Assembly: GCA_011944185.1 (NCBI GenBank)
Contig: GCA_011944185.1_3921.1
Length of the DNA stretch: 40,116 bases
Strand: one strand, 5' to 3'
DNA from: a phage
In this document: positions 1 through 4,660 of the stretch, one piece after another
Numbering within the stretch: the stretch's first letter is position 1
Layout of the letters: the number at the start of each line of letters is the position of its first letter
Position numbers and translations under genes: made by a program
Notes under the pieces: model-generated
Databases searched by the model: none
What the model was told of the DNA's origin: nothing
What the model saw: only the letters and a program-made list of their open reading frames with translations

Positions 1-97
1 AGAGCTTTTCTAAGATACTGAAAAATATTTTAAAAAAGTTCTTGACAACCACTAAAAAATAATGTTAAAGTGGTTACATAGAGTTTGAAAAGTTTAT

Positions 98-174
98 CTC
101 TGTTTAGCTCAGCTTGGTAGAGCGTTCCGTTTGGGGCGGTAAGGCCGGAGGTTCAAGTCCTCCAACAGAGACCA
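98..174 (+). tRNA. tRNA-Pro (anticodon TGG)
   Basis: 7-bp acceptor 98-104/164-170; anticodon loop tttgggg; T-arm GGAGG-TTCAAGT-CCTCC; CCA encoded. Confidence 0.8.
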
Positions 175-181
175 AATTAAT

Positions 182-259
182 GTTCCAGTGGACAAAATGG
201 TAAAGTCACCACTCTTTCAAAGTGGATATTTGAGGGTTCAAATCCCTTCTGGAACGCCA
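182..259 (+). tRNA. tRNA-Glu (anticodon TTC)
   Basis: acceptor gttccag/ctggaac; anticodon stem ccact/agtgg with loop ctttcaa; T-loop TTCAAAT; CCA encoded. Confidence 0.8.
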
Positions 260-350
260 GTTTTGACAGAAGACCAATTACAGCAAACTTAATCTTATTC
301 ATCTGAAGGTAAATCGGACAAAGAAGAGATTTGGTCTGGTCATTAAGAAT

Positions 351-427
351 TGCGGGTATAGAGAAAGGGCGTCTCACATGTCTCATTAGCATGGTATCGG
401 CAGGTTCGACTCCTGCACCCGCCTCCA
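351..427 (+). tRNA. tRNA-Met-like (anticodon CAT), non-canonical
   Basis: T-arm GCAGG-TTCGACT-CCTGC; anticodon stem catgt/gcatg with loop ctcatta; 1:72 T-C mismatch and 3 nt between acceptor and D-stem. Confidence 0.5.
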
Positions 428-510
428 AATTTACAGAAGACCGTTTACAGCAATATTTATTAAATTTTTAGCGGAAAAATTGAAAGATACGGTCTGGTAA
501 TACTAAACAT

Positions 511-587
511 GGTTAGGAAGCACATAAGGTATGTGCGGTCGCCTGTTAAGCGAATGGCACAGGGTTCGAATCCCTGACTAACCGCCA
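511..587 (+). tRNA. tRNA-Asn (anticodon GTT)
   Basis: acceptor ggttagg/actaacc; anticodon loop ctgttaa; T-arm CAGGG-TTCGAAT-CCCTG; CCA encoded. Confidence 0.8.
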
Positions 588-656
588 AATTTAGGAGAGA
601 AGCGATTGCTCACCGATTTGTAAGGTGCAAGTCCTTAGCCTGAATAGAAATCAAAT

Positions 657-744
657 GTGTCGTTATCCCGTAGATGGTAGCGGTGGGGACTGTAAATCCC
701 TTGTCATTGAGACTCGGTAGGTTCGACTCCTACACGGCACACCA
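657..744 (+). tRNA. tRNA-Tyr (anticodon GTA), long variable arm
   Basis: 88 nt; anticodon stem gggga/tccct with loop ctgtaaa; T-arm GTAGG-TTCGACT-CCTAC; CCA encoded. Confidence 0.8.
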
Positions 745-750
745 AATAAA

Positions 751-828
751 GGTTATGTAGTTTAATCTGGTTAAAATACTCCCCTGTCACGGGAGATGAT
801 GAGGGTTCAAATCCCTTCATAACCGCCA
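751..828 (+). tRNA. tRNA-Asp (anticodon GTC)
   Basis: acceptor ggttatg/cataacc; anticodon stem ctccc/gggag with loop ctgtcac; T-loop TTCAAAT; CCA encoded. Confidence 0.85.
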
Positions 829-1032
829 ATTTTGAGAGGGCTATTTAGCCCCTCCCTTAAAGAGTTCTTACGAGTATTCTTTAAAGGAGCAGAAGACCAA
901 ATACAGCAAGCATGTATGAAATTTCAAACCAATTCAATTTTGAAAATTTAAAACTTGGTCTGGCTCAACAAATTTACAGAAGACCGTTTACAGCAAAACT
1001 TAAACAATCTATTTCTCCGGTAAAGAAAAGGC

Positions 1033-1085
1033 GAGGGTTCGATTCCTTCACTCGGCAGATGTCGAGTTGGTGTAATGGTAGCACT
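1033..1085 (+). pseudogene. scrambled tRNA-like fragments: T-arm plus acceptor 3' strand directly abutting acceptor 5' strand plus D-arm
   Basis: GAGGG-TTCGATT-CCTTC then actcggc (1050-1056), 4-nt loop, gtcgagt (1061-1067) forming a perfect 7-bp hairpin, then D-arm-like gtgtaatggtagcac; no anticodon arm can be assembled. Confidence 0.3.
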
Positions 1086-1109
1086 TAAGATGATAAACAA
1101 CGGTCTGGT

Positions 1110-1253
1110 AATTATCTTTGTAGATAAGTTATTAAGCTTACCTGTGAGTATGCGACCACAAAGGGTGAATGGGTAAATTCTAGATTTAAACCCAAAAAGG
1201 CACATCGCTACAGACCTTAAGCAAGTCTGGGTAGCTTATCTACAAAGATAATT
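1110..1253 (+). other. candidate structured RNA/DNA element bounded by a perfect 19-bp inverted repeat (1110-1128 / 1235-1253)
   Basis: attatctttgtagataag at 1111-1128 is the exact reverse complement of cttatctacaaagataat at 1235-1252; encloses about 106 nt between tRNA fragments and tRNA-Lys. Confidence 0.4.
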
Positions 1254-1257
1254 TAAT

Positions 1258-1333
1258 GGAAGTGTAGCAGAATGGTGATGCGGCAGACTTTTAATCTGAC
1301 AGGCGATGGGTTCGAATCCCTCCACTTCTACCA
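1258..1333 (+). tRNA. tRNA-Lys (anticodon TTT)
   Basis: acceptor ggaagtg/cacttct; anticodon loop cttttaa; T-loop TTCGAAT with weak T-stem; CCA encoded. Confidence 0.75.
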
Positions 1334-1337
1334 ATAT

Positions 1338-1414
1338 GGTTCGGTCGCAGATAAGGTAATGCAAGGGTCTCATAAGCCCTATGAATGTGGGTTCGATTCC
1401 CATCTGAACCTCCA
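1338..1414 (+). tRNA. tRNA-Met (anticodon CAT)
   Basis: acceptor ggttcgg/ctgaacc; anticodon stem agggt/gccct with loop ctcataa; T-arm GTGGG-TTCGATT-CCCAT; CCA encoded. Confidence 0.8.
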
Positions 1415-3083: not shown

Positions 3084-3089
3084 AACAAT

Positions 3090-3166
3090 GCTGCTTTCGT
3101 ATAATTGGCTATTACACATCCCTTGTAAGGATGGAAATGCAGGTTCGAGTCCTGTGAGCAGCACCA
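3090..3166 (+). tRNA. tRNA-Thr (anticodon TGT)
   Basis: acceptor gctgctt/gagcagc; anticodon stem catcc/ggatg with loop cttgtaa; T-arm GCAGG-TTCGAGT-CCTGT; CCA encoded. Confidence 0.85.
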
Positions 3167-3262
3167 ATTCAGAGGTCAAGTGAAAGACCGCTTTGAGTCA
3201 ACTGAAGACCGTAACAAATTCCACGAAGTTGAGTTAGCGGCACAACTTCAGACCTCTTTCAT

Positions 3263-3337
3263 ACTCGCTTAGTTTATATGGTAAAACATCACCCTTATAA
3301 GATGAAGAAAAAGGCTCAAGTCCTTTAGTGAGTACCA
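3263..3337 (+). tRNA. tRNA with anticodon TAT (Ile-like, would read AUA), atypical T-loop
   Basis: acceptor actcgct/agtgagt; anticodon loop cttataa with stem tcacc/gatga (one C-A mismatch); T-loop CTCAAGT; discriminator A; CCA encoded. Confidence 0.55.
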
Positions 3338-3338
3338 T

Positions 3339-3416
3339 GTTCCAGTATCCCAATTGGCAGAGGATGCAAGCTCAAACCTTGTATTAGTGACGGTTCGAAT
3401 CCGTCTTGGAACACCA
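3339..3416 (+). tRNA. tRNA with Leu anticodon CAA but short variable loop
   Basis: acceptor gttccag/ttggaac; anticodon stem gcaag/cttgt with loop ctcaaac; T-arm GACGG-TTCGAAT-CCGTC; discriminator A; 75 nt. Confidence 0.65.
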
Positions 3417-3421
3417 ATTTT

Positions 3422-3497
3422 GCAGGATTAGTTCAAATGGAAAGAGCAACAGTCTACGAAGCTGTTAATAGGGGTTCGAATCCCTTATCCTGCGCCA
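3422..3497 (+). tRNA. tRNA-Arg (anticodon ACG)
   Basis: acceptor gcaggat/atcctgc; D-stem gttc/gagc; anticodon loop ctacgaa; T-loop TTCGAAT; CCA encoded. Confidence 0.85.
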
Positions 3498-3514
3498 GAT
3501 AAAAAGGTGATACT

Positions 3515-3757
3515 ATGCAAACATTAACAGTAGTTGAACATGAAAACTGTGAGAGTATTGAGTTTGTCAGGGTCATTGGTGTTGAACACCACATTTTCTT
3601 AAAAGTGGGATACTTATGCGACCCCGCTAGAGTAGAAAGATTTATACGTGATTGTTTTGGTGGTAGACATCTGAAGAGTGTTATTTTTGAGACAGTTTTA
3701 CCAGAAGGTTTAGAAACGAATAATAACATTTACCTCCTTACGAGGATTAGACAATGA
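3515..3757 (+). CDS. hypothetical small protein (80 aa)
   Basis: ORF with AAGGTGA 6 nt upstream of ATG; stop overlaps the start of the next ORF (ATGA). Confidence 0.45.
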   Translation: MQTLTVVEHENCESIEFVRVIGVEHHIFLKVGYLCDPARVERFIRDCFGGRHLKSVIFETVLPEGLETNNNIYLLTRIRQ

Positions 3758-4311
3758 GATACTTAAAGTATGCTTCATGGATTTTCTTAGCTTTGTTAGA
3801 GCCATTTGCAGCAATCTTAGCAGTTATCTTAGCACCTTTTGTAGTTCCATTCTACAGTGAGAAGAAAGGACACTTACCTTTCGGGTTCAGATGGATGGAG
3901 ACATATGACAACCCAATTGATGGTGATGAAGGTCACGTTAAAAGATGGGCTAATATTAGATGGATTGGTAAACTAGGTGTCTACATGCAAAGAGTCGGAT
4001 GGCTCTGGAGAAACAAAGCTTATAACTTCTCTTACCATGTATTAGGAAGAGATGTAAGAGATGTTACTAAGTGGAAAGGTAATATCAACGTAAGTTCTAA
4101 CCCTGAAGATAATCAGACTGGTTATCTCCTAATGTGGAACAGTAATGCTTGGGGATTATTCGCTTTTATCCCATCAATTAAAGTCTTCGGTAAACAGTTT
4201 TACTGGAGAATTTATGTTGGATGGAAACTTAAAAGTGTTGTCCCAGAAGAAAGAGCATTCTCAAGGGAAAGAGTTATGTTGGCATTCTTTATTCATCCAC
4301 TGAGAAAGTAA
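3754..4311 (+). CDS. hypothetical membrane protein (185 aa)
   Basis: hydrophobic N-terminus (WIFLALLEPFAAILAVILAPFVVPF), Trp-rich; start translationally coupled to the upstream ORF. Confidence 0.5.
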   Translation: MRYLKYASWIFLALLEPFAAILAVILAPFVVPFYSEKKGHLPFGFRWMETYDNPIDGDEGHVKRWANIRWIGKLGVYMQRVGWLWRNKAYNFSYHVLGRDVRDVTKWKGNINVSSNPEDNQTGYLLMWNSNAWGLFAFIPSIKVFGKQFYWRIYVGWKLKSVVPEERAFSRERVMLAFFIHPLRK

Positions 4312-4319
4312 AGATTTAA

Positions 4320-4395
4320 AGGGGATTAGTTTACAAGGTTAAAACCTCGGTCTTTGAAATCGAAGAAGTTGGTTCAATTCCAACATCCCCCGCCA
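4320..4395 (+). tRNA. tRNA-Gln (anticodon TTG)
   Basis: acceptor aggggat/atccccc with 1:72 A-C mismatch; anticodon stem tcggt/atcga with loop ctttgaa; T-arm GTTGG-TTCAATT-CCAAC; CCA encoded. Confidence 0.75.
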
Positions 4396-4397
4396 AT

Positions 4398-4476
4398 GCT
4401 CCATTACTCCAATTGGCAGAGAGGCCAGACTTAAAATCTGTGTTATGTATCGGTTCGAATCCGATATGGAGTACCA
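4398..4476 (+). tRNA. tRNA with Leu anticodon TAA but short (7-nt) variable loop
   Basis: acceptor gctccat/atggagt; anticodon loop cttaaaa; T-arm ATCGG-TTCGAAT-CCGAT; discriminator A; 76 nt. Confidence 0.65.
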
Positions 4477-4481
4477 AATTT

Positions 4482-4557
4482 AGCGGTATAGCATAACTGG
4501 CAATGCAGCAGTCTCTGAAGCTGTCCTATTAAGGTTCAAATCCTTATGCCGCTGCCA
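4482..4557 (+). tRNA. tRNA-Gln (anticodon CTG)
   Basis: acceptor agcggta/tgccgct; D-stem gcat/atgc; anticodon loop ctctgaa; T-loop TTCAAAT; CCA encoded. Confidence 0.75.
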
Positions 4558-4588
4558 CTTCTAAGGATTCTTACGAGAGTCCTTAAAT

Positions 4589-4660
4589 GTGGCCTTATCA
4601 TAAATGGTAATGACCCATGCTGTGAACATGGTCTATACGGGTTCAAATCCCGTAGGTCAC
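4589..4660 (+). tRNA. tRNA-His (anticodon GTG)
   Basis: acceptor gtggcct/aggtcac; perfect anticodon stem ccatg/catgg with loop ctgtgaa; T-arm ACGGG-TTCAAAT-CCCGT; discriminator C; no encoded G-1 or CCA. Confidence 0.8.

Follow-up and report, generated by a model that had tools for sequence, protein, structure and literature searches.

Hairpins resembling the tRNA-Gln leader of phage T4 recur in the tRNA cluster of Felix O1-like phages as candidate RNA-processing signals

Clusters of transfer RNA (tRNA) genes are common in phages and have been linked to codon supply and to escape from host anticodon nucleases. To our knowledge, the cutting of long, mostly untranslated precursors into working tRNAs has been described for hardly any phage besides T4. 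In T4, the tRNA cluster opens with a folded leader, in which the hairpin CAAGGGUUCUU-GUUA-GAGAGCCUUUG lies 8–10 nucleotides (nt) 5' of tRNA-Gln, the first tRNA. Ribonuclease (RNase) III acts on intramolecular double-stranded stems of about two helical turns, roughly 20–22 base pairs (bp), and at such stems in the early messenger RNA (mRNA) of phage T7 and in ribosomal RNA (rRNA) operons the cut by the host enzyme releases modules and leaves a hairpin-protected 3' end upstream. For T4, Escherichia coli RNase III is reported to take part in, and to be needed for, tRNA maturation (PMC4810235, citing McClain, 1979; Gurevitz and Apirion, 1983). Here, we describe a 40,116-nt stretch of phage DNA (contig GCA_011944185.1_3921.1 of assembly GCA_011944185.1; hereafter, the window), which derives from a Felixounavirus (Felix O1/wV8-like) and carries in its tRNA cluster, positions 1–5700, several copies of a hairpin that resembles the T4 leader. 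The original prediction, made from the letters of the window, had assigned five sites (A, B, C, E and D, in order of position) to a single motif family at the heads of tRNA sub-clusters, and had proposed that they may be phage-specific promoters or RNase processing sites.

We found that all five sequences are present where they had been placed and that each is an inverted repeat folding as a hairpin (z-scores −2.6 to −5.1 vs. shuffled controls); the idea of one family, however, did not hold. Judged by their sequences, B, C and D represent one old hairpin in three copies, borne by the plus-strand polycistronic RNA of the tRNA cluster, while A and E stand apart and have only short AT-rich words (TTCTAAG) in common with the other sites. 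The B/C/D stem is AAGGNUUCU / AGAGNCCUU, with the loop UACG in B and D, which have the exact 10-mer TTCTTACGAG in common and agree at about 22 of 24 nt. In C the copy has diverged, and its apex, CUUUC-UAA-GAGAG, is related but re-registered. The orthologue of C in Erwinia phages, AAAGGUUCU-UACG-AGAGUCUUU, has the UACG apex; it closes a conserved non-coding RNA of ~190 nt with its own sigma70 promoter and abuts tRNA-Leu. The positions of the hairpins (Table 1) bear out the claim that three of the sites end 2–10 nt before a tRNA 5' end, the distances being 5 nt for C, 1–6 nt for E and 3 nt for D. D occupies a gap of 31 nt between tRNA-Gln(CUG) and tRNA-His, and both neighbouring tRNAs contribute their ends to its outer pairing (4555–4592, four outer pairs). 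On its 3' side, B has a stem-loop that is not a tRNA, and A has a promoter. Two elements of a similar kind had been omitted from the original list, namely 1110–1253, placed by the same positional logic as the listed sites, and a minus-strand hairpin at 33509–33545.

Table 1. Hairpins, structured elements and promoter features of the window, in order of position.
Feature	Position	Strand	Details
Site A, weak AT-rich inverted repeat, not in the hairpin family	1–41 (originally given as 5–35)	+	−9.7 kcal/mol on plus vs. −8.3 on minus strand, about equal
Predicted UP element of promoter P1 (TGAAAAATATTTTAAAAAAGTT)	19–40	+	core match 21–37
Sigma70 promoter P1, TTGACA, 18 nt, TG-n-TAAAGT	42–71	+	5' of tRNA-Pro at 98; nearly invariant in related phages
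GC-rich hairpin directly 5' of B	834–856	+	stem kept, loop variable in related phages
Hairpin B, ~15 bp, UACG loop, copy of AAGRGUUCU/AGWRUYCUU	852–889	+	50.1 bits with model R1; A-U to G.U to G-C series at pair 12–27
144-nt structured element, 24-bp closing stem	1110–1253	+	z −6.0; followed by UAAU, then tRNA-Lys at 1258
Sigma70 promoter P2, TTGACA, 17 nt, TATAGT	1507–1535	+	starts the conserved non-coding RNA that ends in hairpin C
GC-rich hairpin directly 5' of C	1672–1699	+	conserved as far as Erwinia phages
Hairpin C, 16 contiguous bp including three G.U, UAA loop	1700–1734	+	5 nt 5' of the tRNA-like gene 1740–1818
Small terminator-like hairpin AAAGACC/GGUCUUU with U-tract	2659–2678	+	overlaps the 5' arm of E; stem kept, loop variable
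Hairpin E, stem of at least 26 bp, branched apex, six G.U pairs	2669–2759	+	z −5.1; ends 1 nt before tRNA-Leu at 2761
Hairpin D, 10 bp, UACG loop	4562–4585	+	50.7 bits with model R1; 3 nt 5' of tRNA-His at 4589
C-like hairpin ACUUAAGAGUCUUU-UAA-GAGGGUUUUUAAGU	33509–33545	−	~25 nt 3' of a minus-strand sigma70 promoter; folds on the minus strand only

The likeness to T4 extends over both arms of the stem. In most Felixounaviruses hairpin D has exactly the T4 5' arm, and the two 3' arms differ by one or two bases; in B, D and the T4 hairpin alike, two adjacent G-C pairs lie within a stem that otherwise consists of A-U and G.U pairs. Members of the T4-leader family were defined by the stem AAGG(N)UUCUU / AGAG(N)C(C/U)UU on the transcribed strand, either within ~15 nt 5' of a tRNA or heading a transcription unit; this pattern is carried by D and by the Erwinia orthologue of C, with B and the C of the window as diverged copies. 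This both-arm pattern has one match in the 10-kb T4 locus, at the leader, as against ~5e-6 matches expected per 100 nt of T4-like sequence, a figure that is optimistic because the pattern was widened after seeing T4. Conservation of the T4 leader extends to more than 560 phage records. T4, OMNI12, a Dhakavirus and a 158-kb relative retain the stem, with GUUA, UCCU, CCCUCA or AACAU as the loop; such a stem under a freely varying loop speaks for the double-stranded stem, rather than the loop, being what is recognised. Given the match to the hairpin before the first tRNA of T4, we regard the hairpins as most likely RNA-cutting signals used in RNA processing, not as new promoters.

That the elements function as RNA is supported by their strand polarity. 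By virtue of their G.U pairs, C, E and the core of D fold far more stably on the plus than on the minus strand (−16.8 vs. −4.6, −36.9 vs. −24.6 and −10.6 vs. −6.7 kcal/mol, respectively), and the strand on which 33509–33545 folds is the one transcribed there. Our comparison set consisted of ~30 related genomes (31 IMG/VR loci, wV8, Sf13 and one Erwinia phage). The orthologues show 15 variable stem pairs with 31 states, 29 of which are standard pairs on the plus strand vs. 18 on the minus strand, and the pair-preserving changes include a series from A-U through G.U to G-C in B and, in E, the replacement of U-A by G-C. When B, D and the Erwinia orthologue of C are compared as copies, seven pairs have changed on both sides, and none of 500 shuffles reached the observed covariation score. 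At site C, four loci (L009, L011, L015 and L018) have an unrelated 64-nt hairpin in place of C; thus, position and shape have been kept despite replacement of the sequence. The two hairpin alleles and the two alleles of the tRNA downstream are found in all four combinations.

The distribution of the hairpin is narrow. B, D and the Erwinia orthologue of C were used to build a covariance model (R1), which was run on wV8, whose complete 88-kb genome was scanned for copies of the motif and of the hairpin. B, D and the Erwinia orthologue scored 43–53 bits, and the model also picked up, at 17–29 bits, a small number of related hairpins in a single non-coding unit on the minus strand; R1 retrieved nothing 5' of protein genes in the 88 kb. 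The TTCTTACGAG hairpin occurs in this genome at B and D only; therefore, a general promoter role fails. We looked for a host origin and found no copy of the hairpin in 5,426 E. coli genomes. Rfam holds no family for it and returned, at E and D, only far sub-threshold microRNA-like matches such as any generic hairpin gives. Among the at least 120 matches listed in pattern scans of IMG/VR, almost all are chance matches inside genes, and an apparent extra copy in L104 was rejected as it lies within a coding region. The genome paper of Felix O1 (PMC3185647) describes no such element. As for the bare word TTCTWASRAG, we counted nine occurrences in the window vs. 1.29 expected, so it is indeed commoner than chance; however, the six copies outside the tRNA region all fall in long open reading frames (ORFs), and those folded with their context give no comparable hairpin.

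Taken together, we lean towards the view that B, C, D, E and 1110–1253 are processing hairpins of the RNase III type, which set the modules of the precursor apart, a reading to which we give moderate confidence. The hairpins stand at boundaries between non-tRNA modules and tRNAs, or at rearranged junctions between tRNAs, and 1–5 nt separate the stems of C, D, E and 1110–1253 from the tRNA that follows; AU is the ending of nearly every leader in the cluster. Between the two functions first proposed, that of processing sites is the better supported, by conserved RNA structures lying 1–5 nt 5' of RNase P sites and by a stem like that of the T4 tRNA-Gln leader, while cleavage, its order and RNase III as the enzyme are what we infer. 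Host RNase III would cut the stems and so separate the precursor modules. At the tRNA on the 3' side, the cut would free the AU-rich UAAU as a short leader on which RNase P can act, and it would give 3' exonucleases an entry for trimming back to a 5' GC hairpin or to the CCA end of a tRNA. GC hairpins are located directly 5' of B, C and E. In vivo, the sites of RNase III show a base-pair pattern in which the two positions between the staggered cuts favour G-C pairs (PMC6212723), and the central GG/CC of the family stem would fit this preference. Compared with the 20–22 bp typical of substrates, the stems of E (at least 26 bp) and 1110–1253 (24 bp) are long enough, those of C (16 bp) and B (~15 interrupted bp) are borderline, and that of D (10 bp plus four outer pairs) is short.

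Several points weigh against this interpretation. B and D are shorter than the ~22 bp that RNase III spans. Covariation is weak when orthologues only are considered, as 86–95 of 500 shuffles equal the observed value, which is not significant because the variants are too few. The T4 hairpin scores only 7.2 bits with R1, and the link to T4 depends on a pattern that was widened after T4 had been seen; C, too, scores low (12.8 bits), in both cases because the model had learnt the UACG loop. In the T4 relative UP19 the hairpin lies 5' of a protein gene, and B has no tRNA on its 3' side; therefore, the element is not strictly tied to tRNAs. Our literature search found no transcriptome, transcript-end or cleavage data for Felix O1-like phages. 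As to the T4 precedent, Pragai and Apirion in 1981 and Gurevitz and Apirion in 1983 reportedly placed an RNase III cut in the T4 leader just 5' of tRNA-Gln, and production of this tRNA is said to have been impaired in rnc-deficient hosts; the leader hairpin (NC_000866, 72540–72565) is the presumed site of this cut.

The same evidence of structure, polarity and position would serve a role at the RNA level that does not involve RNase III, with the hairpins acting as passive insulators or barriers to 3' exonucleases after the RNase P cut, or as an adjacent structured unit for RNase E cutting the AU-rich linkers. We consider this possible, though rather unlikely. It would suit the shortness of B and D as RNase III substrates and the GC hairpins directly 5' of B, C and E, and assistance to RNase E is conceivable because simple stem-loops can replace a neighbouring tRNA in recognition by this enzyme (PMC9841416). 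A purely structural role, however, gives no account of why the same stem has been kept from T4-like to Felix O1-like phages while loops vary, and D would block the 3' maturation of tRNA-Gln unless it were cut. It is doubtful that the hairpin is an operator for a phage RNA-binding protein, e.g., the DUF2828 (phrog_850) product of the gene just 5' of the cluster, which would regulate or organise the processing of tRNAs and non-coding RNAs. The apex GUUCU-UACG-AGAG is indeed kept among B, D and the Erwinia orthologue of C, the adjoining gene is annotated as encoding an RNA-binding protein, and the cluster also contains modules resembling Y RNAs; yet the loop is conserved neither in T4-like phages nor at site C, and its freedom to vary makes a protein operator unlikely. 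Moreover, the Erwinia locus keeps the hairpin though no DUF2828-type gene is annotated beside its cluster.

It seems improbable that the elements work as DNA, be it as palindromes bound by proteins, as hot spots of recombination or boundaries of cassettes in the exchange of tRNA modules, or as leftovers of small mobile palindromes. Homology breakpoints between related phages at 1700, 1734 and 2761 do coincide with hairpin edges, the alleles at site C are fully reassorted, and words of the CTnnnAAG type are enriched in the non-coding DNA of wV8. Against this, the G.U states are almost confined to the transcribed strand, which is not expected of a DNA palindrome, B, D and E show no presence/absence polymorphism in the ~30 genomes, and there is no integrase or transposase nearby. 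We think it quite improbable that the hairpins are weak intrinsic terminators or attenuators dividing the cluster into transcription units, even though one T4-like record (H76) annotates the homologous leader hairpin as a terminator, GC hairpins precede B, C and E, and the one at 2659–2678 is followed by UUUUU. Terminators are unlikely because U-tracts are missing from B, C and D, and a terminator scan called none of B, C, D and E; a stop right before tRNA-His, tRNA-Leu and tRNA-Lys would also leave these genes without a detectable promoter. The remaining proposal, phage-specific promoters not recognised by sigma70, is very improbable and close to refuted. It could appeal to sites that lie 5' of tRNAs and lack −35/−10 hexamers, and to the timing of Felix O1 transcription, which is unknown (PMC3185647). 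It is contradicted by the polarity of the hairpins as RNA, by the position of D in the 31-nt gap between tRNAs, and by the absence of the motif from every other intergenic region of the 88-kb genome, in which, outside the cluster, a few related hairpins occur in one minus-strand non-coding unit only. In addition, Felix O1 has no RNA polymerase of its own, no known sigma factor and no known factor altering the specificity of the host polymerase (PMC3185647), and sigma70 promoters, one of them with an UP (upstream) element, are already present. Two other candidates were discarded. A mimic of an anticodon stem-loop (CUUACGA, Val or Arg), for which a 5-bp stem has to close a loop of 7 nt, is incompatible with the register of D, which permits loops of 4, 6 and 8 nt only; a boxA-like antitermination signal (TCTTTAA, similar to rrn boxA) was set aside by reasoning alone, as no more than this 7-mer matches and it is buried in a stable stem.

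Site A differs from the other four in its likely function. We found no promoter-like site within B, C, D or E, so that for these the reported lack of a sigma70 match stands; A, however, adjoins a near-consensus promoter, P1. The UP core AAAWWTWTTTTNNNAAA has one match in 40 kb (0.01 expected), at 21–37 (AAAAATATTTTAAAAAA), ending 4 nt before the −35 hexamer. The UP-element consensus used here is reportedly that of Estrem et al. from 1998. Site A is thus predicted to be the UP element of the host-type sigma70 promoter P1, apart from the hairpin family, and P1 with this element probably drives the first tRNA block. With strong sigma70 promoters at P1 and P2, the cluster needs no unknown promoters. 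P2 is the promoter of the non-coding RNA at 1507–1699 (~160–190 nt), whose high conservation extends from Felixounavirus to Erwinia Kolesnikvirus and in which compensatory changes are seen (GUGAGG/CCUCAU vs. GUAGGG/CCCUAU); in Rfam this RNA obtained only sub-threshold matches resembling transfer-messenger RNA.

The first 6 kb of the window match ~350 phage records, those of Felix O1, wV8 and other Felixounavirus genomes, at 92–99% coverage. Between 98 and 5672, ARAGORN identified 25 tRNA genes, each of them on the plus strand; it made no call for the extra tRNA-like gene at 1740–1818, found by Rfam only (31.7 bits). This gene is unusual in having the anticodon loop CUUCUAA and no clear D-arm, and in many relatives it is swapped for a canonical tRNA-Arg(UCU). 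The cluster is interrupted by small ORFs, by several non-coding stretches and by an HNH endonuclease gene (1846–2182), which is present in some genomes only and missing, with clean junctions, from many relatives. Likewise, a 60-nt segment between tRNA-Asn and tRNA-Tyr (594–652) is found in the window and is missing from most related loci. The phage tRNA-His (4589–4664) encodes no G at position −1 and has U there instead; in the wV8 annotation it appears as tRNA-OTHER or as a pseudogene. The leader of tRNA-Lys(UUU), AAAGATAATTTAA(T/A), and the hairpin before it are common to the window (1240–1258) and to a T5-like contig (L023, 6290–6329), which suggests that modules of a tRNA plus its leader may move between phage families.

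The cluster also contains stem-loop modules at 264–343, 431–500, 888–966 and 974–1111, with a related element at 3171–3257, that have a common closing stem, ACAGAAGACC(R)WUUACAGCAA ... GGUCUGGU. The element at 3171–3257 is also conserved in the 120-kb T5-like contig (L023, 4655–4739). The fourth module (974–1111) has the permuted layout described for the bacterial YrlA Y RNAs (PMC4201824), with a T-arm, a closed acceptor-like hairpin and a D-arm inside it. Just 5' of the cluster of the window lies a gene (wV8 NC_012749, 24405–25820; L032) for a 471-amino-acid protein with the domains DUF2828 and DUF7788 (phrog_850), annotated as "RNA-binding protein"; comparison of this protein (gp47) with solved structures gave no match at the sequence level. 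The co-occurrence of Y-RNA-like modules and a putative RNA-binding protein suggests that a Ro-like protein and its RNA may form a pair in these phages.

Elsewhere in the window, the C-like hairpin at 33509–33545 is part of a minus-strand non-coding unit (~33370–33604), which consists of a sigma70 promoter, this hairpin, G/U-rich repeats with GGUCUGGU and a terminator-like hairpin; here, GGUCUGGU corresponds to the 3' strand of the Y-like stems. Two or three copies of the unit are present in wV8, where they are annotated as DR_4. Outside the window, the wV8 genome (NC_012749; L032) has at 13,900–15,560 an ORF-free region of 1.6 kb between convergent gene blocks, packed with the words CTTGTTAAG, CTnTAAAG and GGGCTT at a spacing of ~10–11 bp. 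This region could serve as an array of protein-binding sites or lie at the genome ends.

A broader scheme, which we put forward as speculative and rather doubtful, is that the AAGGNUUCU/AGAGNCCUU hairpin is an ancient gate common to T4-like and Felix O1-like phages. Under this scheme, maturation of the tRNA just 3' of the hairpin would require the double-stranded stem to be cut beforehand, and the hairpins would also mark exchangeable cassettes of tRNAs and non-coding RNAs, within a cluster that has Y-RNA-like modules and a putative Ro-like protein. As to the more restricted reading of RNase III-type processing hairpins, it would mean that Felix O1-like phages reuse a T4-type leader hairpin, in several copies, at module junctions. 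Exact coordinates are now at hand for tests of RNase III dependence, and annotators may take the repeats as a warning that they are RNA structures and not promoters.

Among known systems, site A compares with the UP elements of strong sigma70 promoters such as rrnB P1: it is an exact match to AAAWWTWTTTT-nn-AAAA directly before TTGACA, and like those of rrn promoters it is predicted to serve stable-RNA genes, though its spacing to the −35 hexamer is 1 base shorter than in the published alignment of the consensus. The hairpins share with the RNase III hairpins of T7 early mRNA and with the stalks of rRNA operons the proposed character of intramolecular stems in polycistronic RNA. T7 sites, however, have internal loops and ~20 bp, whereas B and D are shorter, and the products of the T7 and rRNA stems are mRNAs or rRNAs, while those proposed for the window are tRNAs and small non-coding RNAs. 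Repetitive extragenic palindromic (REP)-type elements and the stem-loops at mRNA 3' ends are likewise stable structures between cistrons able to block 3' exonucleases; unlike the REP type, the hairpin of the window has no match in E. coli, keeps its stem across phage families and adjoins RNase P sites. The nearest counterpart is the T4 tRNA-Gln leader, which has the same stem, AAGGGUUCUU ... AGAG(N)CCUU, with G.U pairs likewise on the transcribed strand, stands 8–10 nt 5' of the first tRNA with an AU-rich linker between them, and belongs to a phage of an enterobacterial host with the same RNases. T4 has a single copy, located after a MotA-type middle promoter, in contrast to the three copies (B, C and D) at internal junctions of the Felix O1-like cluster, which additionally possesses longer unrelated stems (E and 1110–1253); B and D have a UACG loop, and loops differ among T4-like phages. 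The hairpins would belong to a known kind, the RNase III-type processing hairpins of phages, with the leader of T4 tRNA-Gln as the closest representative.

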